Shown piece by piece: positions 2,333-60,846 of a stretch of 64,000 bases of DNA. The first letter of the stretch is position 1, and each line of letters opens with the position of its first letter. The notes below the pieces were generated by a model. It had not been told where the DNA came from. It saw only the letters and a list, made by a program, of their open reading frames with translations, and ran no database searches. The DNA is taken from the NCBI GenBank assembly GCA_038887515.1, contig JAWAKK010000001.1, forward strand, positions 1-64,000. The letters run 5' to 3'. The position numbers and the translations under genes are program-made. This stretch comes from Candidatus Nezhaarchaeales archaeon. GTDB taxonomy: Archaea > Thermoproteota > Methanomethylicia > Nezhaarchaeales > WYZ-LMO8.

Positions 2333-2806
2333 CTAAATCATTTTAGACAAAAGGTCGTTTATTGCTGGACCTCTATAGCCTAACTCTCCTCCTTCTTTGA
2401 AGGTCCTCTTTATTGTCCCTTTAAATCCTCCTGAAGGTGGATGTAACCTGAAAACTGGTTTTAAGTTTGGTATTTCTTGCAAAGCTATCTTGCCTTCAAG
2501 TATAGCTTTAGCCAATTCTCTGAAGTTTTCGAAACCCAACTTTTTAATGTATTCAAGCGTCAGGCTCTCATCGCCTACTAGCCTACCTCTCTTTTCTAAT
2601 AATGATGCTAGAATTTCTTCATTTACCTCCCCGTACGTTATGTAGCCTGAGACTTTCTTCAGCATACCCTCGACCGACGGCGTAGCCTCAACTATTATGC
2701 AGTGATTCTTTCTTGCGAGCCTTAAGGATTGCAATGTAAGCTTAATATCCGGTGGTACGCCAACACAGCCCCTAAGCCTTATGACCGCATAGAGTTTTTT
2801 TGTCAT
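2333..2806 (-). CDS. rpl30: 50S ribosomal protein uL30
   Basis: YAVIRLRG and [13 protein letters not shown] motifs. ATG at 2806 overlaps the rps5 TGA (ATGA). Confidence 0.95.
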
Positions 2807-3456
2807 GCTCTCGCCCAATCCTTAACCGACTTAAAAGCCAGTGTGCCCCGAAGAGCTTCGAGAGTTGCCCTTGCCGTGTTCTCCTTAGTTCGAGATTCGC
2901 CTTTACTAAAAGTCCACACATCCTTTACTCCTGCAAGCCTTAGCACTATTTTAGCCGTATCGCCCGCTACAAGACCAGTTCCTCTAGGTGCTGGTAATAG
3001 CGTTACCTCTACGCTACCAGCCTTACCCCAAACTCTTACCGGTATGCTGTGGGGTCTGCCACATCTGCACTCCCAACTTCCACAACCAAGTCTAACGGGG
3101 ATTATGTTCAACTTGGCCTCAGCTATAGCTTTGTCTATTGCTTCCCTCATTTGCCTTGCTTTAGCACTACCTAGTCCAACATAACCAGCCTCGTTACCTA
3201 TAGCTATCACTACCTTAAACCTCGAAGACTCGCCAGCGTACGGCCGCCTAGTAGCCTACTAGGCGGTGTCCGTCTGCCTTTGAACTATCTTTACGTCAAT
3301 GACTTCGTGCTTTAGGTTTGGCAGTAAAGCATCTACTATTTCTGGCTCTTTTATCACTAAGTTGTTGGCAAATATTTCGTCTATGCTTGTTATCTTGCCC
3401 TCTTTTACTAATCTTCCTACATACGTTGTTGGAGACCATACATCAAGTGAAGACAT
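2803..3456 (-). CDS. rps5: 30S ribosomal protein uS5, two exons: join(3456..3268, 3237..2803), 207 aa after splicing
   Basis: The N-half ([16 protein letters not shown]...VQRQTD) and C-half ([15 protein letters not shown]...[16 protein letters not shown]) are in the same frame, separated by a 30-nt insert containing TAG TAG. Confidence 0.93.
3238..3267 (-). other. BHB-type mRNA intron (30 nt) in rps5
   Basis: Sense strand CAG-ACGG-AC|A-CCGCCTAGTAG-G-CTACTAGGCGG-CCGT-AC|G-CTG: 4-bp helix ACGG/CCGT, two 3-nt bulges, CAG/CTG exon stem. Confidence 0.9.
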
Positions 3457-3529
3457 ACTAATCAACTCCTAAATTGGCTTTGTAGTGAAAACCTACAAAT
3501 TAGGGGGTTTATTTTAAGCTTTCCTTCAA

Positions 3530-4159
3530 TTACTTCGTGCTGTTTTGCTCACTTATTGCTTGTAGCTGCATTAAGTGCTCTATCTTGCTCTTAGTTTCTT
3601 CAAAGGCCTCAATAATCCTCTCTGGATCAAAACCTGTCTTGAGGTAAGCCGAGAACTGTCTTTCGAATTTCTCTGGATTACTTTCCTTAAGCTGTTTTGC
3701 ATATTCCGCTATGTGGGAACCCTTAATTCTGTCCTCCGATGGTAACATCTCCGGACTATGAGGAATTTTAAGTCCGCCATCTAGTGCACCTTTTAATGCC
3801 GCAAAGACTCTGGACCCCTTTACAGCTCTATGTAAACCTATGTATAGGACGGCTTCCTTTACACCGGCTTTTATTGCCCTTAAGGCTGCAAGGTACCCCA
3901 CTAAATAGGATGCGGGAGTATTCTTACCCGAAGCAGGCCAGCCAAACTTTGTTTTTAACTCCCTTCCAGTTGCTTGAGCTAAGACCACATCGCCTCTTAC
4001 TTCGGGCTTGACTACTTGAACTATTATTTGGGAACACGTCCTTCTAACCACGAGCAAGGGCCTACCAGAGAGGATCATTCTTCTCCTTAACCTATAATTC
4101 GTTAAACCCTTCCTCCTTCTATTGAAGGGTATCCTTCTTAACCCCTTCTTTTTAGCCAA
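3530..4159 (-). CDS. rpl18: 50S ribosomal protein uL18
   Basis: RRRKGLTNYRLRR, KNTPASYLVG and FAALKGALDGGLKIPH motifs. Confidence 0.95.
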   Translation of the reverse strand: MAKKKGLRRIPFNRRRKGLTNYRLRRRMILSGRPLLVVRRTCSQIIVQVVKPEVRGDVVLAQATGRELKTKFGWPASGKNTPASYLVGYLAALRAIKAGVKEAVLYIGLHRAVKGSRVFAALKGALDGGLKIPHSPEMLPSEDRIKGSHIAEYAKQLKESNPEKFERQFSAYLKTGFDPERIIEAFEETKSKIEHLMQLQAISEQNSTK

Positions 4160-4161
4160 GT

Positions 4162-4608
4162 CTAAACCCTCCTAATGAGACCCTGCTCCTTTAAGTACTC
4201 CTTTAATTGTGCCCTGCTGTGGAAAGCTCCCCCCTTAACTAGCCTGTAAAGCCTTCTGTATGTTTTCTTGTCTATTGCCCTTTTGTCTCTCAGAAGCTTA
4301 AGGAGCCTTCGAAGCGCTCTTATCCTCGCGATCCAGAGTTTCTTGTCTAAACCAGCTTGGGAACCTTTACGTGAACCCTCGCCCTTCATTAGTCCCTTAC
4401 GTTTTTTTAGGAGCCTAGCTCTAGTTCTCGCTCTACTAGTCCCCCTGATGGGTCTAGCGGATATCACGCCTCTCTCAATGAGCTTCCTGACGTCTTCCTT
4501 CGTTATGGCTGATGCTGCTTCCTCGAGAGCTGAAGGATCTATGTATACCCTGCTTTCTCCTACACCTAAGACCTCTGCTGCAAGTCTTCTAACAACGCTT
4601 AGATTCAT
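4162..4608 (-). CDS. rpl19e: 50S ribosomal protein eL19
   Basis: RRLAAEVLGVGESRVYIDP and GEGSRKG...WIARIRALR motifs. Confidence 0.95.
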   Translation of the reverse strand: MNLSVVRRLAAEVLGVGESRVYIDPSALEEAASAITKEDVRKLIERGVISARPIRGTSRARTRARLLKKRKGLMKGEGSRKGSQAGLDKKLWIARIRALRRLLKLLRDKRAIDKKTYRRLYRLVKGGAFHSRAQLKEYLKEQGLIRRV

Positions 4609-5024
4609 GTCTCAACACCAACCGCATTAAGAACTCTAAGCCCCATGCTCTTGGCTTTTTCAATTATCTGAACTCGTTTTCTCCTCCCTACGGTACGCGC
4701 AATTCTTATACAATAGGTCTTGGGGTCCAGACCCTCTAAATCCTCGGGTCTATAAACTAGAACTTCTATCAAGCCTGAAGGGTGAAGGCCCCTAACAGCT
4801 TTAGGGCCGCGGTATCCTACTCGAACGAGTGGGGGATATCCTTTCCTACAAAGTTTTATCTTATTGTCTATCCCCCTAGGTCTCCTCCAACGCTCTTCGT
4901 CAACCCTTTTAAGACCCAAGGTATTGAGCCGCCTAAATTCCACTCTACTTCTACTCATCTTTAATCTCAATTTCAAGAGCCTCTTCATGGCACCTTGCAA
5001 TGCAAATAACCCTCCAGAGCTCAC
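4605..5024 (-). CDS. rpl32e: 50S ribosomal protein eL32
   Basis: WRRPRGIDNK and RGLHPSG motifs. Confidence 0.95.
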   Translation of the reverse strand: MSSGGLFALQGAMKRLLKLRLKMSRSRVEFRRLNTLGLKRVDEERWRRPRGIDNKIKLCRKGYPPLVRVGYRGPKAVRGLHPSGLIEVLVYRPEDLEGLDPKTYCIRIARTVGRRKRVQIIEKAKSMGLRVLNAVGVET

Positions 5025-5070
5025 TCCTTCATTACATAATTAACTTAAAAACTTTCATGAACTTTAAAGG

Positions 5071-5631
5071 TTAAACGACGCTTTTGCCTTTACGTTCATA
5101 TATGTAGATCCCATCCATGAAAATCCTCGGGTCGTATCCCTTTATCCTAGTTGCCTGTTCAATGTTAGCGGCGGTTTGAGATACCTCTTCGATGTCCACT
5201 CCTTCAACTATTATATCGTCTCCCTTAACCTGTACCTTTACATTGCCAACTATTCTTGCTACCCTCTTAGATTTCTCCCCCATGAAGTTTTCTATGATCA
5301 CTTTGCCATCCTCTACCTTTACGTTCATCGGGAAGTGCGAGTACACTATCTTAAGCTTGTAGACAAAGCCCTCAGTAACGCCTTTGACCATGTTTTTAAT
5401 GTGGGAGGATATAGTTCCACAGGTACTTTTACCCCTTTTACCCTTAATGTAGGATTCTACGAGGATATTGGAGTTCTCCATCCTTATCCAAACCTTAGCG
5501 TGAGAGAAGTCCTTTGTAAGGGAACCTTTAGGACCTTTAACTGTAATCTTTGCGGGTCCTTCTATCTTTACATCTACACCCGGCGGTACGCTTATTCTCT
5601 CGACAACGTAGGGTCGATATAGGATCTTCAT
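5071..5631 (-). CDS. rpl6: 50S ribosomal protein uL6
   Basis: VKGPKG, YSHFPMNV and DPRIFMDGIYI motifs. Confidence 0.95.
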   Translation of the reverse strand: MKILYRPYVVERISVPPGVDVKIEGPAKITVKGPKGSLTKDFSHAKVWIRMENSNILVESYIKGKRGKSTCGTISSHIKNMVKGVTEGFVYKLKIVYSHFPMNVKVEDGKVIIENFMGEKSKRVARIVGNVKVQVKGDDIIVEGVDIEEVSQTAANIEQATRIKGYDPRIFMDGIYIYERKGKSVV

Positions 5632-5656
5632 CTATAGCACCTCAAGAATTTACCAC

Positions 5657-6049
5657 CTAGTAAACGAAAGCTAGCAGGACACCTCCTATGCCAAGTTCCT
5701 TAGCCTCTCTATGAGACATGACACCTCTAGATGTGGAGATTATTAGAAGACCCACATCAGGAGATGGGAGATACCTCTTCTCCCACCTCTCAAATTCGTT
5801 TCTCCTAACGGGAAATCTGGGTTTTATAACTCCGCACTGGTTGATTCTACCTAGTAATTGAACTCTTATTTTACCAAACCTTCCATCGTCTATGTACTCA
5901 AAGTTTCCTATGTAACCCGCCTTAAGCATGACCCTGAGAACATTAGCTATCAGCTTCGATGCCGGCATTATTAGTGCGTCGCTTCTAGCCCTCGCTTCAC
6001 AATTCTTTATAGTTGCTAGAGCATTCGCAAGAGTATCGTTCATAACCAT
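5657..6049 (-). CDS. rps8: 30S ribosomal protein uS8
   Basis: DTLANAL, IDDGRFG and [12 protein letters not shown] motifs. Confidence 0.95.
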
Positions 6050-6063
6050 ATCCCTTCACCTAA

Positions 6064-6228
6064 CTACATGTACTTCTTAAAGCCTAATTTGGGAGCGACT
6101 TCTCTAAAACAGCGCCTACAAATCATGAGCGAATATTTGCGGATTAATGCCTCATGAGTTCCACATATCCTGCACCTTCTACTCCCCTTACCAAATTTTC
6201 TTTCTTTTGGCGGCCTGTACTTACCCAA
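6064..6228 (-). CDS. rps14: 30S ribosomal protein uS14 (zinc finger)
   Basis: [11 protein letters not shown]...CRRCFRE. Likely TTG start at 6228 after a GAGGTGG SD sequence. Confidence 0.93.
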
Positions 6229-6253
6229 CTTCTCCACCTCGCATAAGTTTAAG

Positions 6254-6775
6254 CTACACAATTTTTACACCAAGAAGTTCTTTTACAAAATTTATACTCT
6301 CTTCCCGAGTTACTCTATGGTTTTTGCCTACTTTCGATCGTTTTCTCCTTCTTCTTGCTACGCGATAACCCGGTCTCTCTACCGTTACACAGACGTCAAA
6401 CCCAAAAACTCCTAGAGAAGGATCATACTTCGTACCCGGCAGGGATACGTGCTCTTTAATTCCAAAGGAGAAGTTGCCGCGCTCGTCGAATGATTCGCTC
6501 TTAACCTTGAAGTCGACAGCCGTAAGTGCCCTCTTTAAAAACTCTAACGCTCTGTCTTTCGTTAAAGTAACAACGCACGCAATGCTTTCTCCCTTTTTTA
6601 TCCCGAACTCTTTAATTGTCTTCTTAGCCTTTCTAAAGCTAGGCTTTTGTCCTGTAAGAGCCTCTAAAACCTGAGCCGCCTTGGCTAGTCTCTCGCCTGA
6701 AGTGCCGACTGCCATGTTAACTACGACTTTAGCTATCTTTAGCTTCCTCATAACATTTTGTTCTTGGACAGTCAT
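6254..6775 (-). CDS. rpl5: 50S ribosomal protein uL5
   Basis: KVVVNMAVG and [10 protein letters not shown] motifs. Confidence 0.95.
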
Positions 6776-6781
6776 GAATTT

Positions 6782-7513
6782 TCACCCTAAAGTTATCGTG
6801 GGCGAGTCCTTTCCAATTATGAATACTGTTAAGTATCCTACGTCGAACCTTTCATCTCCATGTTCAAGAGTAACGATCTTATACTCCCTCATGGGCCCTC
6901 CCTTGACTTCGACTATCTTTCCTATCCTGCCCACCTTCCTTCCGCTTGTAACTAACGCTAAGCTTCCGGGTTCGAACCGGTAGTGTTCTAATATCTTGCG
7001 ATCCGGCAATGATATCTTAACGACGTCAAAGGTCTTGTAAGCATTAATGGAACTTGAGGCCTCAACTATAATGTTGCTTCCGTCGTGGAGATTCAGCTGT
7101 ATGCGTCCTCCCCTAACGCTCCTCTTGTCTTCTATTCTGCATAACTTAAAGTACTTTTCATGTTCAGGTATTGGAACCACATCCAAGAACTTACCTGGTC
7201 TAGGCAATAATCTGAAGATTAAATTCTCTTTTTCGATCTCTATTACGTCCATAAGGCCTACCGGGAACCTATAATCCTTCCTTACAACGCCATCAACCTT
7301 AACAGCCCCAGACCTCAATATGTACTTTACCTCCCGTGCACTTTCAGCCAATTTGAGGACATCTCTTAATAGTATGAGAAGAGGCATTGACTTATCAAGT
7401 GTATGAGGACCGGGTGACGGTCTTGGAGCCCATACATGCTCTTTTACTGGAATAGGCCACCAAGCAGGAATGGTATATCGTTTTAAACCTTTAGACGCTG
7501 ACTTTTTAGTCAC
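6782..7513 (-). CDS. rps4e: 30S ribosomal protein eS4
   Basis: PSPGPH, VKVDGVVRKDYRFPVGLMDVI and QLNLHDG motifs. Confidence 0.95.
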   Translation of the reverse strand: MTKKSASKGLKRYTIPAWWPIPVKEHVWAPRPSPGPHTLDKSMPLLILLRDVLKLAESAREVKYILRSGAVKVDGVVRKDYRFPVGLMDVIEIEKENLIFRLLPRPGKFLDVVPIPEHEKYFKLCRIEDKRSVRGGRIQLNLHDGSNIIVEASSSINAYKTFDVVKISLPDRKILEHYRFEPGSLALVTSGRKVGRIGKIVEVKGGPMREYKIVTLEHGDERFDVGYLTVFIIGKDSPTITLG

Positions 7514-7530
7514 GTCAACTCACCTTTAAT

Positions 7531-7917
7531 TCACGAAGAAGTCTTCATCATCTTCCTTTCAATAATCTTCTTCCTCCATCCATCATCTAAATTGAGCTTG
7601 ACTATCTGGACCTTTGATGGGTTGACTGGAATAGGTACTTCAGATCCATCCGTCTTCTTCCTTACCAGCCCCTCTATATAGACCCTATACTTCTTATGGT
7701 CTAGCTTTATCACTTTACCAGTATGACCTCTGTGGTCCCCCCTCATGACCATAACGACATCTCCTGTCCTTAGGGGTAGTGACCTAAGGGGGTACTGGTT
7801 TCTAAGTTCTTTAGATAGGTGTGCAGATACAATCTTATGCCTAACGTGGTTTGGAGCTTGATATAGCCAACGCCTCTGCTTTCTCGGTTGTTTACTTTTA
7901 AAGTGCATGAGGTTCAC
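7531..7917 (-). CDS. rpl24: 50S ribosomal protein uL24
   Basis: SKQPRKQR and GDVVMVMRGD KOW motif. Confidence 0.95.
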   Translation of the reverse strand: MNLMHFKSKQPRKQRRWLYQAPNHVRHKIVSAHLSKELRNQYPLRSLPLRTGDVVMVMRGDHRGHTGKVIKLDHKKYRVYIEGLVRKKTDGSEVPIPVNPSKVQIVKLNLDDGWRKKIIERKMMKTSS

Positions 7918-7918
7918 C

Positions 7919-8347
7919 TCATACTATTAAAGTAGCTAAAGCTGCTATTCTAGGCCACCTCTCAGCCGCTTCGCGAGCTATGGGGCCCCTTACCTCGGTA
8001 CCTTTGGGACTACCGTCTTCGGTTACTATGACTACAGCGTTATCTTCGAACTGGACCCATTGACCGCTAAGCCTCCTAAATGGCTTCTTCTGTCTTACCA
8101 CTATTGCCCTCATAATCTGCTTTCTCAGCTCAGGAGTCCCTTTCTTAACTGAGACTAATATCATGTCCCCTACCCCTGCTCCTACGATCCTCCTATGCCT
8201 ACTTTTACCTCCGATCATCCCTATCATTGCAACTTCGTGCGCACCACTATTATCTACACATTTTATTCTTGAACCCGGAAAGACAGCTGGGCTTATTCTA
8301 GGTCTATATGATATCCCAGCTGCCACCTTTGGTCCTCGCTTAGCCAT
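7919..8347 (-). CDS. rpl14: 50S ribosomal protein uL14
   Basis: CVDNSGA, FEDNAVVI and GPIAREAAERWPRI motifs. Confidence 0.96.
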   Translation of the reverse strand: MAKRGPKVAAGISYRPRISPAVFPGSRIKCVDNSGAHEVAMIGMIGGKSRHRRIVGAGVGDMILVSVKKGTPELRKQIMRAIVVRQKKPFRRLSGQWVQFEDNAVVIVTEDGSPKGTEVRGPIAREAAERWPRIAALATLIV

Positions 8348-8430
8348 CGATTGAGAACCTCCAGTCGACGTTGTGGACTCAAAAAGCCTTGCCGGGTATA
8401 AAAATTTACCCTTTTACTCGAAGCTATTAA

Positions 8431-8775
8431 TCAGGTAACGGTCTTACCTAAGACCACGAAACTAACGGTCTTAGCTAACGGCCTGCATTCTCCTATAACT
8501 ACTTTGTCGCCTACTTTAATGTCGAGGCAGGGTGGAAGATGTGCGTGGATCTTACTCCTCCTTCTCTCATACCTCTCATACTTTTTAATGTAGACCTCGT
8601 ATTCATGCAGTACAGTAACGGTAGACTTCATCTTCACGCTCACTACGCTACCCTCTAGTATCTTACCTCTAACGGATAAAGAACCATGATAAGGACAGCG
8701 CGGATCACTACAAATCTTTTCTGGAGGCTTAATTCCCGCTATACCTACGTTTCTCGTTTTTACCGTCTTACTCAT
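8431..8775 (-). CDS. rps17: 30S ribosomal protein uS17
   Basis: CSDPRCPYHG, KKYERYERRRS and GECRPLAKT motifs. Confidence 0.95.
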   Translation of the reverse strand: MSKTVKTRNVGIAGIKPPEKICSDPRCPYHGSLSVRGKILEGSVVSVKMKSTVTVLHEYEVYIKKYERYERRRSKIHAHLPPCLDIKVGDKVVIGECRPLAKTVSFVVLGKTVT

Positions 8776-8856
8776 GAAGTTGGATCACCGCTAAGCGAAA
8801 GAGGATTAAGAGGTTATTTAAAAACTTTTGCTTGAGAACTAAGGCTTCGAATGTCT

Positions 8857-9144
8857 TCACCAGCGCTTCTTGAACAAGCGCTTAATTCTATCTTCAGGCC
8901 TACCAAGGAGGTATGGACCTTCCACTTCAACAATAACATTGTCGGGGAGTTTGAACCTAAAGATGCAGCACTTTTTCGGTATTGTCTTGATGGATCCTTT
9001 GTCATCCATTATTTTAATAGTCTTCATAGTTTCATCGACGACTAAGCCCTCCACTCCCTCGTAACTCTTGTTGGTGCTCTTAACGATCTTGACCCTTAAG
9101 CCTATCAGTTCATGATTTAAGATGTTGTAGGGGGTTATAGGCAT
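8857..9144 (-). CDS. rnp1: RNase P protein component 1 (Rpp29)
   Basis: NILNHELIGL, GLVVDETMKT and GRPEDRIK motifs; usual position upstream of uS17. Confidence 0.93.
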   Translation of the reverse strand: MPITPYNILNHELIGLRVKIVKSTNKSYEGVEGLVVDETMKTIKIMDDKGSIKTIPKKCCIFRFKLPDNVIVEVEGPYLLGRPEDRIKRLFKKRW

Positions 9145-9333
9145 CTAAATTCACAACCCGTTAAGCTCTAAATTCTCACTACCACTAAAACTGTTGAGCT
9201 TTACGCTACAAATTTACAAAATAGATTAAGTCGCCAAATCCTCCCTTGATAGAACTTTAGTAGTCGATTGCGCGAGGAACCTAAAAGACTCGCCTTCGTA
9301 AATACGCGATTTAATTATTTAAGAGTAAAGAAT

Positions 9334-9429
9334 TGGTGCGGCCGCCGGGATTTGAACCCGGGTCCCCAGCACTCTTCGAGGATGTCTCTTGGAAGGCTGG
9401 TGTCCTAGTCCAGGCTAGACGACGGCCGC
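9334..9429 (-). tRNA. tRNA-Gly(TCC) with an 18-nt canonical 37/38 intron (9372..9389); CCA encoded
   Basis: GCGGCCG acceptor stem, GGTTCAAATCC T-loop. BHB: CCAGC-CTTC-CA|A-GAG ACATC CTC-GAAG-AG|T-GCTGG. Confidence 0.95.
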
Positions 9430-9567
9430 TTCTCGTTTTATTGGGTACTCGAGTATATTTTTATTTTCGGGCTCAACCTAATGCCTCCTAATCATTGCGC
9501 GCGCTCATTTTAACTCTGACATTTCATCGCCCATCTTCTAATTTTTGTAGCGCCCAATAAACATTTG

Positions 9568-10638
9568 CTAGTCGGTTCCTAAGATTTTAGGTATGTTCTC
9601 CCCGTAGGGCGACCTTATGATTCCCTTCTCGGTTATTATTGCAGTTATAAGGTCTGGAGGGGTTACGTCAAACGCTGGGTTTAAAACCTTAACGTCTATC
9701 GTAATCGGTTTCCCATTCACTTCTAAGATCTCTTTTGGATCTCTATGCTCTATGATTATATCTTCAACCCTAGACTTCAAGTCGAAAGTCGAAGAAGGTG
9801 CTGCTACATAAAAAGGCACCGAGTACTTATTGGCTACTATCGCTATAGTTAGAGTCCCTATCTTATTTATTACATGCCCGTCTTTCAGCACTCTATCGGC
9901 TCCGACTATGACTTTGTTTATCATGCCTTGGCTCATGACGTAACCAACCATGTTATCGGTTATCAATGTTACGTCGATGCCGTCGCACTTAAGTTCATAG
10001 ACCGTTAGCTTTGCCCCTTGAAGTCTCGGTCTAGTCTCCGTCGCTATTACCCTAACCTTCTTGCCTTGAGCTACGGCGCTCCTAATGACTCCTAGAGCAG
10101 TACCATAACCGACTGTGGCCAAAGCCCCCGCAATCTACCAGCTGAGCCTTTAGCTCAGCTGTTTGCAGTGGGTTAATAATACGTCGCCATCTTCTACGAG
10201 CTCCGCACCAATATCACCGATCCTTTTATTGACTTGAAAGTCCTCTTCAGCCATCTTGAGTGCCTCTCTTAAAGCAAGTTTCTTAGCTTCCTCGATGTCC
10301 TTGGCTTTCTCTACCACTCCTATCATTCGTTCAATAGCCCAAAATAGGTTTCTAGCGGTAGGCCTAGCCCTAGAAAGGGTCTCTGCTGCAACTCTTAGAT
10401 CACTTAAAAGCCCTTCTAAACTTTCTGCGCTAGAGTGCATAGCTGCCAGCGCAATCCCCATAGCGGCGGCAACGCCTATTGCTGGTGCCCCCCTAACGGT
10501 CATGTCCTTTATCGCTCTAACAATCTCTTCGATGTTCCTACACTCTACGTATCTCTTTTCCCATGGTAAAGCGTTTTGATCTAAAAGCCTAACAACACCG
10601 TCGCGCCACTCAACACTTCTAGCTTCAAAGAAGGTCAC
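9568..10638 (-). CDS. mtnA: Methylthioribose-1-phosphate isomerase (eIF2B-alpha-like), two exons: join(10638..10163, 10132..9568), about 346 aa
   Basis: [28 protein letters not shown]+[21 protein letters not shown] and NPAFDVTP motifs. The halves are in frame, separated by a 30-nt insert containing TAA. GTG start inferred from an upstream GGGTGG. Confidence 0.9.
10133..10162 (-). other. BHB-type mRNA intron (30 nt) in mtnA
   Basis: Sense strand CTGC-AA|A-CAGCTGAGC-TAAAG-GCTCAGCTG-GTAG-AT|T-GCG: helix CTGC/GTAG with one G-U pair and a 9-bp intron stem. Excision gives TGC AAT GCG (C-N-A). Confidence 0.88.
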
Positions 10639-10739
10639 GAGGAACCACCCGATCAACTGTTAAGCATAACAATTTTAAAAGTCAATCCGTCTCTAGCCCT
10701 CAAGATTTTTAAAGCCCTATCAACCAGACAACAATAAAG

Positions 10740-10857
10740 GCGGGGGTGCCCGAGTCAGGACAAAGGGGCGGGACTTAAGATCTCCGCTGTTTGAGGCCGG
10801 AAGTGGTAAGAAATCCCGTGGCGTAGGCCTTCGTGGGTTCAAATCCCACCCCCCGCA
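10740..10857 (+). tRNA. tRNA-Leu(TAA) with a 33-nt canonical 37/38 intron (10780..10812)
   Basis: GCGGGGG acceptor stem, long variable arm, GGTTCAAATCC. BHB: CGGGA-CTTA-AG|A...TAAG-AA|A-TCCCG. Confidence 0.93.
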
Positions 10858-11219
10858 CTATTTGCTAGTAAAACTTACATGGACTTTCACTTTTGCTCTT
10901 CATTAATTATATAAGTCGGTCGTAGATGTAAGGAAAATCATAATTGTACTTACATGTAACCTTCATATTGTAAGATATTTCGAAGAATTGCTGTAATAAT
11001 TTTCTTTTCCTTGAAGCGTTTTCCTTCAATTCGCACATAACTTTGCTGTCTTCTCTCCTTTTGTGTTTCGTTTAACTTTCCTTTAGATTCCATGATGCTT
11101 GCGCGTTACGCCCGATTAAATGAAGTTAAAAGATACATGGTGTTCTGCGCTTCTCCACAAAGTTTTCTTTTAAAGGTTTCCTCTTTATTATATTCCAATA
11201 TTTGTTGGCGTGGTTGAAA

Positions 11220-20962: not shown

Positions 20963-21287
20963 GGGCACGGCGGGTAGGCCCGGGGGGCTCGGCCTCCCCT
21001 GTAACCGCAAACGGCCGATATGGCGGGGGCAGCAACCCCGACAAGCGGCTTTAGGAAGTCCGAGCCCCCTGGCTCTAAACTATGAGGTCCCGCCCCATGG
21101 AGACGCTGTAGGGGATAGCTCCCCCGTAGGGGGGATACGAATCTCCTTGCCGACCGAACCAGGTTAGGCCCGGGAGGGAGCGGCCTTAAGGTCGGGCAGC
21201 GTCGTTCATGGGTTAACGGGGCTGAGGAAAAGAGCCAGATGCGAGCTCGGACCGACCTAAGCCCATTGTCGGGGGGCCGCCGTGCCC
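20963..21287 (+). ncRNA. ffs: Archaeal SRP (7S) RNA
   Basis: GC-rich island with complementary ends GGGCACGGCGG/CCGCCGTGCCC, Alu-domain TGTAACC, helix 6 CCCCC-GTAG-GGGGG and helix 8 AGGCCCGGGAGGGAGCGGCC. Confidence 0.93.
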
Positions 21288-60402: not shown

Positions 60403-60846
60403 TCATAAGATGACTATCTTCTTACCTCCTTCTTTCTTAGCTTTTTTTAAGGCTCTTAAGACCATTAAGACTTCAATAGTTTTCTTAGCCTTACTTGGAG
60501 GTTGAGGCTTAAGGGAAGTTATTGGGCCTATGTATATGCCTATACTAATGGTCGCATTAGAACCACTCTCTCTTCCAATCCTCTCTATTTCTAGCCGGAT
60601 TTTCTCCATTTCCCTTAGGACTTCATCTATGTTGGTATCAACAAACTTCATTACAACTTCTTCGGTACCCCGTTCCTCGTCGAGACCATAAATCACGATA
60701 CCCCCTAGCTTCGATATCACCTCTTCAACTAATCGAGTTAAACTTCCTGTTACGATATTGGGTTTGTATTCGGTCCAGTGCATGTTGTTAGTTACATCCT
60801 TGAACCTATCCAGATCAAGGGCTACTGTTATCCCGTTAAACTGCAT
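60403..60846 (-). CDS. Stand-alone GGDEF/nucleotide-cyclase-like (palm) domain protein
   Basis: LDLDRFK...RGTEE...TISIGI...ALKKAKKEGG follows the GGDEF-domain pattern. Confidence 0.6.
   Translation of the reverse strand: MQFNGITVALDLDRFKDVTNNMHWTEYKPNIVTGSLTRLVEEVISKLGGIVIYGLDEERGTEEVVMKFVDTNIDEVLREMEKIRLEIERIGRESGSNATISIGIYIGPITSLKPQPPSKAKKTIEVLMVLRALKKAKKEGGKKIVIL

Follow-up and report, generated by a model that had tools for sequence, protein, structure and literature searches.

Archaeal precursor tRNAs (pre-tRNAs) carry, at the canonical position 37/38 and at non-canonical ones, introns with a bulge-helix-bulge (BHB) structure, in which a 4-bp helix separates two 3-nt bulges (3-4-3 geometry), and an intron of this type reportedly also interrupts the pre-mRNA of crenarchaeal cbf5, as described by Watanabe in 2002 and by Yoshinari in 2006. 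A further parallel is the unconventional splicing of HAC1/XBP1 mRNA in eukaryotes, in which a short intron defined by RNA structure is removed without the spliceosome, an RtcB-type ligase is used and the reading frame changes. Here we analyze a stretch of 64,000 nt ("the window") from the start of contig JAWAKK010000001.1 (C1) of a Candidatus Nezhaarchaeales genome (GCA_038887515.1; hereafter G000), in which two protein genes, rps5 and mtnA, each hold an insert of 30 nt with the build of a BHB intron. Our reading, to which we give a probability of roughly 0.92, is that both genes are intact and that their inserts are BHB introns removed by the endonuclease EndA and the ligase RtcB, as are at least six introns in five other genes of the same genome. 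The likeness to HAC1/XBP1 lies in a short structured intron whose removal without a spliceosome would alter the frame; there, however, the endonuclease is Ire1, not EndA, and splicing is stress-regulated, of which we see no sign here.

Crenarchaeal cbf5 introns measure 16-44 bp and are cut after the second of the three residues in each bulge (Yokobori 2009, PMC2738675). The likeness is close, in that the introns described here are short BHB introns of coding regions and cbf5 of the present genome carries one of 21 nt at the identical site. In contrast to the crenarchaeal situation, six further genes carry introns, one of them twice; the hairpins are longer and more regular (9-11 bp); and the host lies outside the Desulfurococcales and Sulfolobales, being kin of records labelled Nezhaarchaeota and Methanomethylicia. 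Identity over aIF2-gamma is 76% for the nearest Candidatus Nezhaarchaeota record, with 70% for Candidatus Methanomethylicia, and one record at 85% bears the label Nitrososphaerota. The introns also share the geometry of pre-tRNA introns, which in this genome measure 13-33 nt and have a 3′ bulge beginning with A in the clear cases, but they have no tRNA body for recognition, their outer helix is weak or absent, and the mRNA keeps its frame only when the exons are joined precisely. A similar case in Haloferax volcanii is HVO_1309, with an EndA-processed BHB in an mRNA, yet there the intron lies in the 5′ untranslated region (UTR) and the coding sequence is uninterrupted (Schwarz 2020, PMC7714728).

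According to Schwarz et al. 2020, crenarchaeal cbf5 is the only additional archaeal BHB intron reported, plus the authors' own 5′-UTR case (PMC7714728), and the reference list of a 2025 paper has the cbf5 papers alone for pre-mRNA splicing (PMC12397907). Yokobori 2009 mentions earlier predictions of introns in other genes, none of them confirmed (PMC2738675). Our search of the open-access literature, with subscription journals and supplements outside its scope, returned no archaeal coding-region case but cbf5, plus one 5′-UTR case, and no intron report for Nezhaarchaea or Methanomethylicia. An earlier note on this DNA, made from the sequence alone, had cautioned that such splicing might already be published; that caveat stands, cbf5 being the one case found in the open-access papers. 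We take the observation to be real: the kind of intron is known, the hosts are new, and the scale is unexpected.

Inserts in rps5 and mtnA

On the minus strand, 2.3-8.8 kb of the window hold an archaeal ribosomal-protein operon, inside which rps5 is read as two open reading frames (ORFs). The upstream ORF (3259..3465) closes with ...QTDTA*, and the S5 sequence resumes in the downstream frame, the two halves matching successive parts of one family profile (Table 1). The 9-residue gap between their matches to NF003125 corresponds to residues upstream of the GTG chosen as start of the second query, and exon 1 is listed as the open frame to 3465, with its start codon somewhere inside that frame. 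The insert consists, in order, of an A, a perfect 10-bp hairpin with the loop GGC, the CCGU that pairs with ACGG of the upstream exon, and a final AC; the outer helix, formed by exon with exon (CAG/CUG), has 3 bp.

In mtnA, the upstream ORF (10150..10656, minus strand) closes with ...THCKQLS*, and the last two bases of exon 1 belong to an Asn codon that the insert divides. Here, too, the insert contains a 10-bp hairpin; its 4-bp H helix includes one G-U pair, and the outer exon-exon helix is missing (0 bp), which would make the motif one of the relaxed HBh′ form. For both genes, sequence and family profiles confirm what the earlier note had described, namely a 30-nt insert with an in-frame stop, a hairpin, a 4-bp helix and 3-nt bulges, and cuts after the second nucleotide of each bulge, the sites it had assumed, restore the frame and the conserved residues, with QTD|AGE at the junction in S5 and HC-N-AG at that in MtnA.

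In the mechanism that we propose, the pre-mRNA would form a 4-bp helix between the distal part of the upstream exon and the 3′ part of the intron, and the stable hairpin of the intron would buttress the 3-nt bulge left at each junction. EndA would cleave two bases into each bulge, and RtcB would ligate the exons, restoring the reading frame.

Table 1. Features of the window (plain coordinates) and mRNA introns elsewhere in the genome (contig:coordinates), with the occurrence of each mRNA intron among related genomes (families f1-f8; f1 is the family of the genome itself).
Feature	Position	Strand	Evidence or structure	Occurrence among relatives
rps5 (ribosomal protein uS5) exon 1	3268..3465	-	ORF; NCBIfam NF003125 positions 4-67 of 213	
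rps5 BHB intron, 30 nt	3238..3267	-	in-frame TAG TAG; H helix ACGG/CCGU; bulges ACA/ACG	14/30 loci; 10/10 of f1, 4/4 of f3, none in f2; 14 of the 15 species available for the order
rps5 exon 2, stop codon included	2803..3237	-	Pfam Ribosomal_S5 27-65 of 65 + S5_C; NF003125 77-208 of 213	
mtnA exon 1 (S-methyl-5-thioribose-1-phosphate isomerase, IF-2B family)	10163..10656	-	Pfam IF-2B 2-115 of 280; NF004700 2-156 of 339	
mtnA BHB intron, 30 nt	10133..10162	-	in-frame TAA; H helix CUGC/GUAG; bulges AAA/AUU	9/30 loci; f1 only
mtnA exon 2, stop codon included	9568..10132	-	Pfam IF-2B 117-279 of 280; NF004700 160-337 of 339	
tRNA-Gly(UCC), canonical 18-nt BHB intron at 9372..9389	9334..9429	-	Rfam tRNA match; aragorn; BHB check; H helix CUUC/GAAG; bulges CAA/AGU	
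tRNA-Leu(UAA), 33-nt BHB intron at 10780..10812	10740..10858	+	aragorn; BHB check; H helix CUUA/UAAG; bulges AGA/AAA	
Archaeal signal recognition particle (SRP) RNA, ordinary	20968..21282	+	Rfam RF01857, 168.6 bits	
aIF2-gamma intron				10/30 loci; f1 only
aIF5B intron, 29 nt	C2:21722-21750		motif scan only	20/30 loci; f1, f2, f3, part of f5
cbf5 intron, 21 nt	C2:333915-333935		G016 tblastn census and Pfam	21/30 loci; every family but f5 and f6
hypD intron, 22 nt	C3:12273-12294		G016 tblastn census and Pfam	12/28 loci; f1 and one genome each in f4, f7, f8
pyrG intron 1, 20 nt	C2:221611-221630		G016 tblastn census and Pfam	10/10 f1 loci; absent in 4/4 inspected of the other 20 loci
pyrG intron 2, 32 nt	C2:221664-221695		G016 tblastn census and Pfam	10/30 loci; f1 only

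Census of mRNA introns in the genome

The genome is a metagenome-assembled draft of 1.29 Mb in nine contigs, with the window at the start of C1. We scanned both strands of all of it for 4-bp H helices accompanied by two 3-nt bulges and an adjoining hairpin. The loose form of this motif gave 83,508 matches, and for hairpins of 5-7 bp those fusing two ORFs were at chance level (67 against 64.8, 27 against 25.9 and 13 against 11.05). Hairpins of at least 9 bp behaved differently: there are 41 such compact motifs genome-wide, and six loci join two long ORFs, where 20 trials of random motif placement averaged 1.3 and never exceeded 4. The motif scan that had been suggested as a check therefore rises above chance for hairpins of at least 9 bp and not for those of 5-7 bp. 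Pfam searches on ten candidate pairs identified four single split genes (rps5, mtnA, aIF2-gamma and aIF5B), five boundaries between adjacent genes and one unsupported case.

As a census that uses no motif, the ORFs of G016, a complete genome of the same class (1.52 Mb) whose rps5 has no intron, were compared with our genome by tblastn. All candidates spliced in silico were compared with G016 as well, and 17 of them, with hairpins of 6-7 bp, were covered by this comparison alone, without Pfam. The census re-found the introns of rps5, mtnA and aIF2-gamma and added four, in cbf5, hypD and pyrG (two). The aIF5B intron escaped it, since the G016 gene is interrupted in the same place; the complete genome G019 carries that intron as well. 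The total comes to at least eight introns in seven genes, each gene having a single match in the genome; it is a lower bound, since a single reference can hide introns that it shares. The earlier expectation of more cases genome-wide is borne out, the known cbf5 site being among them.

All eight introns, of 20-32 nt, start with A, have A as the penultimate base and place a 4-bp H helix between two 3-nt bulges on opposite strands; cutting after the second nucleotide of each bulge restores the frame and conserved residues in every one. The h′ helix has 4-11 bp, and the outer exon-exon helix h, short in rps5 and missing in mtnA, reaches 6 bp in aIF5B. The exons fit their families: on GTP_EFTU the halves of aIF2-gamma cover 4-80 and 85-187; pyrG matches CTP_synth_N at 1-40 and, after an 11-codon micro-exon (33 nt) between its two introns, at 54-265; the downstream part of HypD matches 29-350 of 351; and the parts of Cbf5 match the DKCLD domain and then TruB_N 17-149. 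In cbf5 the intron splits the catalytic Asp codon between its first and second letters, in GTL|DP. This intron lies at the published crenarchaeal site, and the genome thus holds the established intron type together with seven of the same build. The mechanism proposed for rps5 and mtnA would apply equally to the six further introns, those of aIF2-gamma, aIF5B, cbf5, pyrG (two) and hypD.

Several other candidates from these searches were set aside. By Pfam, five motifs mark boundaries between adjacent unrelated genes: argG/argH (C1:103722-103752), KaiC-like/CarS (C4:18162-18188), nuoD/nuoH (C1:743780-743804), amino-acid kinase/FMN_dh (C2:17106-17130) and an ABC ATPase with the next ORF (C2:44395-44424). 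The motif at C2:343809-343836 is unsupported, its upstream half having no family, and G016 offering no match to the candidate. An in-frame TGA at C1:290130 was rejected as an intron because the downstream ArsP permease is complete, as was C3:74996-75032, which is coding sequence of an AAA ATPase; stops flagged inside some matches proved to be the genes' own C-terminal stops.

At G000:C2:20890..21160 (-), the small homologue of an 88-amino-acid (aa) ORF of G016 changes frame partway and is about 10 bases longer; the weak and ambiguous BHB candidate there (C2:20987-21008) could represent a ninth intron or reflect either a frameshift or an off-frame artefact. The census also listed two further weak split pairs, C2:9515-10218 and C2:37257-36906. 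Five small contigs, C5-C9 (6.6-12 kb), have a G+C content of 0.50-0.63 as compared with 0.44-0.45 in C1-C4 and may be mis-binned; no finding rests on them.

Conservation and covariation in related genomes

For each gene we searched the same 30 related genomes, which belong to eight families of one class, and read the junctions (Table 1). Wherever an intron is present it lies at the identical codon, and intron-less orthologues run exactly colinear across the junction (gap, 0 or 3 nt). The survey of orthologues that the earlier note had called for gives a consistent picture, in which relatives keep introns at the same codon and more distant relatives are uninterrupted. Lengths vary; the rps5 intron measures 22, 28, 29, 30, 31 or 34 nt. 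Among 96 instances of the introns, 61 have a length that is not a multiple of three and the remaining 35 all contain an in-frame stop, so that none could be translated through.

All pairs of the H helix form in 92 of the 96 instances. When the intron ends serve as anchors, 900 of 934 helix cells are paired; sliding the 3′ partner by 1-2 bases reduces this to 33-44%, and shuffles within columns averaged 828 paired cells and peaked at 846, with 0 of 500 reaching 900. Double compensatory changes occur at 24 of 70 pair positions, as in the H helix of rps5, where ACGG/CCGT becomes ACAG/CTGT. Every rps5, aIF5B and cbf5 instance has a different hairpin sequence, and such variety would argue for selection on structure despite the kinship of the genomes.

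These results bear on the alternative that the inserts arose as artefacts of assembly or sequencing, or that the genes are pseudogenes in decay or are split and make two polypeptides. Each gene, unspliced, does read as two ORFs, and the source is a nine-contig metagenome-assembled draft in which C5-C9 deviate in G+C. However, same-codon inserts with differing hairpin sequences occur in up to 21 separate genomes, both flanks are open and conserved, the hosts include single-copy essential genes (S5, aIF2-gamma, aIF5B and CTP synthase), the junctions lie inside conserved motifs (PGHE|ML, GTL|DP and HC[N]AG), and one exon comprises just 11 codons. Contigs built by a second assembler from the likely source DNA run, a hot-springs metagenome, hold both inserts with 0 differences, where the earlier note had named DNA lacking the inserts as the sign of an artefact; this run is probably the source sample, so the agreement rules out an assembler artefact only. 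We consider this explanation largely refuted, and very improbable for the genes discussed here.

A ribosome might also bypass the insert by recoding of the phage T4 gene 60 type, with no RNA splicing involved. The short inserts, the stop just past the take-off point and the stable hairpin give a superficial likeness to gene 60, in which the gap is flanked by matching take-off and landing codons; in rps5, though, these codons differ (GAC and UAC), and in mtnA the codon is split. Bypassing would leave unexplained the conserved and covarying 4-bp exon-intron helix and the two 3-nt bulges, and the same geometry is found in the tRNA introns of this genome as well as at the cbf5 site, for which spliced cDNA is reported (PMC2738675). 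It thus appears scarcely credible as an account of these genes. Group I and group II introns and inteins were rejected on size, inserts of 20-32 nt leaving no room for a ribozyme core, which takes hundreds of bases, or for an in-frame protein-splicing domain.

Splicing machinery and the strength of the splicing interpretation

Typing of the enzymes, also suggested earlier, found two EndA paralogues (PF01974) and RtcB (600 bits) encoded in the genome; the paralogues correspond to G000:C1:132427-133002 and to the ORF at 1474-2010 of locus L196. One EndA paralogue is closest to crenarchaeal catalytic chains (3p1z_B, E 2.6e-48) and keeps the Tyr/His/Lys positions; the other has Gly at the aligned catalytic His and shows weak matches to the structural subunits 3p1z_A and NEQ261. 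The two probably form an (alpha-beta)2 heterotetramer, a stoichiometry suggested by their sequences. Heterotetrameric (alpha-beta)2 EndA has been tied to relaxed motifs (PMC5829648), and hetero-oligomeric EndA to the splicing of cbf5 (PMC2738675). By analogy with crenarchaeal cbf5 and tRNA splicing, cleavage and ligation would take place in vivo, with EndA as the enzyme responsible for the cuts.

Removal of the inserts by EndA and RtcB remains the explanation that we prefer, and conservation, covariation and the presence of the enzymes support the earlier proposal that this lineage splices several mRNAs with the tRNA machinery. Several points weigh on the other side. The motif alone is weak evidence, as five strong-looking motifs sat between adjacent unrelated genes. 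The ten genomes of the same family are close kin, and the counts among relatives partly reflect inheritance, not independent events; four of the 96 instances have one mismatch in the H helix. Minimum free energy folds recover the hairpins, but the flanks pair outside the H register (Z -2.85 and -5.37). With no outer helix in mtnA and just 3 bp in rps5, the motifs are relaxed ones that would need an enzyme of broad specificity. Lastly, about 3% of each of two metatranscriptome runs contained 0 reads of this organism, a result that speaks neither for nor against splicing.

Recurrence, with possible regulation and mobility

If EndA does cut these transcripts, splicing could be partial or conditional and act as a regulatory gate that links translation factors and S5 to the tRNA-splicing capacity of the cell. 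Four of the seven hosts function in translation or ribosome biogenesis (uS5, aIF2-gamma, aIF5B and Cbf5), the introns persist over whole families, and removal of the 5′-UTR BHB intron in Haloferax is reported to be important for expression (PMC7714728). We nonetheless think such a gate unlikely: pyrG, hypD and mtnA fall outside the translation theme, a set of seven genes is too small to test for enrichment, and patchy gain and loss would fit neutral or selfish elements equally well.

The hypD intron is patchy in its distribution. It occurs at the same codon with an unrelated hairpin in three genomes of other families (G025, G027 and G029; loci L367, L366 and L364) and is absent both from their close kin G023 and from a paralogue in G025, a distribution that would need several gains or losses. 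For aIF5B, we sampled 150 genomes across the phylum; short frames appeared in several other families, and twelve loci were read. Six of these have a BHB intron at the same site (G149, G096, G052, G045, G148 and G117), and in other families this GxM|TQHIGA site comes with differing H helices such as GAAA/UUUC and GGGA/UCCU (L381-L384, L388-L390). In G077 a hairpin-bearing insert sits elsewhere in the gene, within the motif GHVDxGKT; of the remaining loci, two have no intron, and in three the search pattern missed the site. In pyrG of our genome (G000:C2:221487..223173 (+)), both introns stand in the exon context ACCCAU|A and have their end sequences in common, which suggests duplication or re-insertion of one intron.

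The twin pyrG introns, the patchy hypD intron, the recurrence of the aIF5B intron in other families and the second aIF5B site in one further family are hints that these mini-introns might be a mobile, proliferating population and not isolated relics. New sites could be reached, for example, through reverse splicing together with recombination or through copying into exons of matching context, and introns settled in translation genes could couple the output of translation factors to EndA/RtcB activity. We offer this as a tentative possibility, on present evidence a rather doubtful one. If true, archaea would have their own equivalent of the regulated mRNA splicing that works without a spliceosome, and early intron gain would have a model among living organisms.

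tRNA introns and other features of the window

The introns of tRNA-Gly(UCC) and tRNA-Leu(UAA) in the window share the geometry of those in rps5 and mtnA, and in all four the first base and the penultimate base are A; aragorn and our BHB check confirm this and the bulges that had been listed for them. The tRNA-Leu intron is placed according to the BHB check, 2 nt off the position given by aragorn. Elsewhere in the genome, the tRNA intron most similar to the mRNA introns is that of tRNA-His (G000:C2:358795..358905 (+)), with 31 nt, a 10-bp hairpin, a first base A and the end AA. In the contigs of the DNA run there are joints at tRNA-Leu (window 10768..10819) and tRNA-Gly (9364..), with word depths in the thousands; most likely these stem from tRNA genes of other metagenome members, with different introns or none.

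At the gathering threshold, Rfam reported tRNAs and the SRP RNA in the window and nothing else. A full hBHBh′ motif of 27 nt lies at 60455..60481 on the minus strand, inside a 147-aa ORF (60403..60846), with a 6-bp outer helix, an 8-bp hairpin and UAAG/CUUA as its H helix. In frame and free of stops, it would cost the protein nine residues if excised, and may represent either an intron without a stop codon or a product of chance.

Significance

For more than 20 years, cbf5 has been the sole documented archaeal protein gene spliced by the tRNA machinery. At least eight introns in seven core genes would turn this curiosity into a genome-wide process. One consequence concerns annotation, as gene callers are expected to miss S5, aIF2-gamma, aIF5B, CTP synthase, HypD, MtnA and Cbf5 in such genomes or to report them truncated or split, errors that would distort completeness estimates and metabolic inferences. 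With respect to mechanism, the introns would be natural substrates for learning how EndA finds BHB motifs when there is no tRNA body to guide it. As to evolution, their clade-specific presence and absence would date, step by step, how prokaryotic protein genes gained and lost introns.

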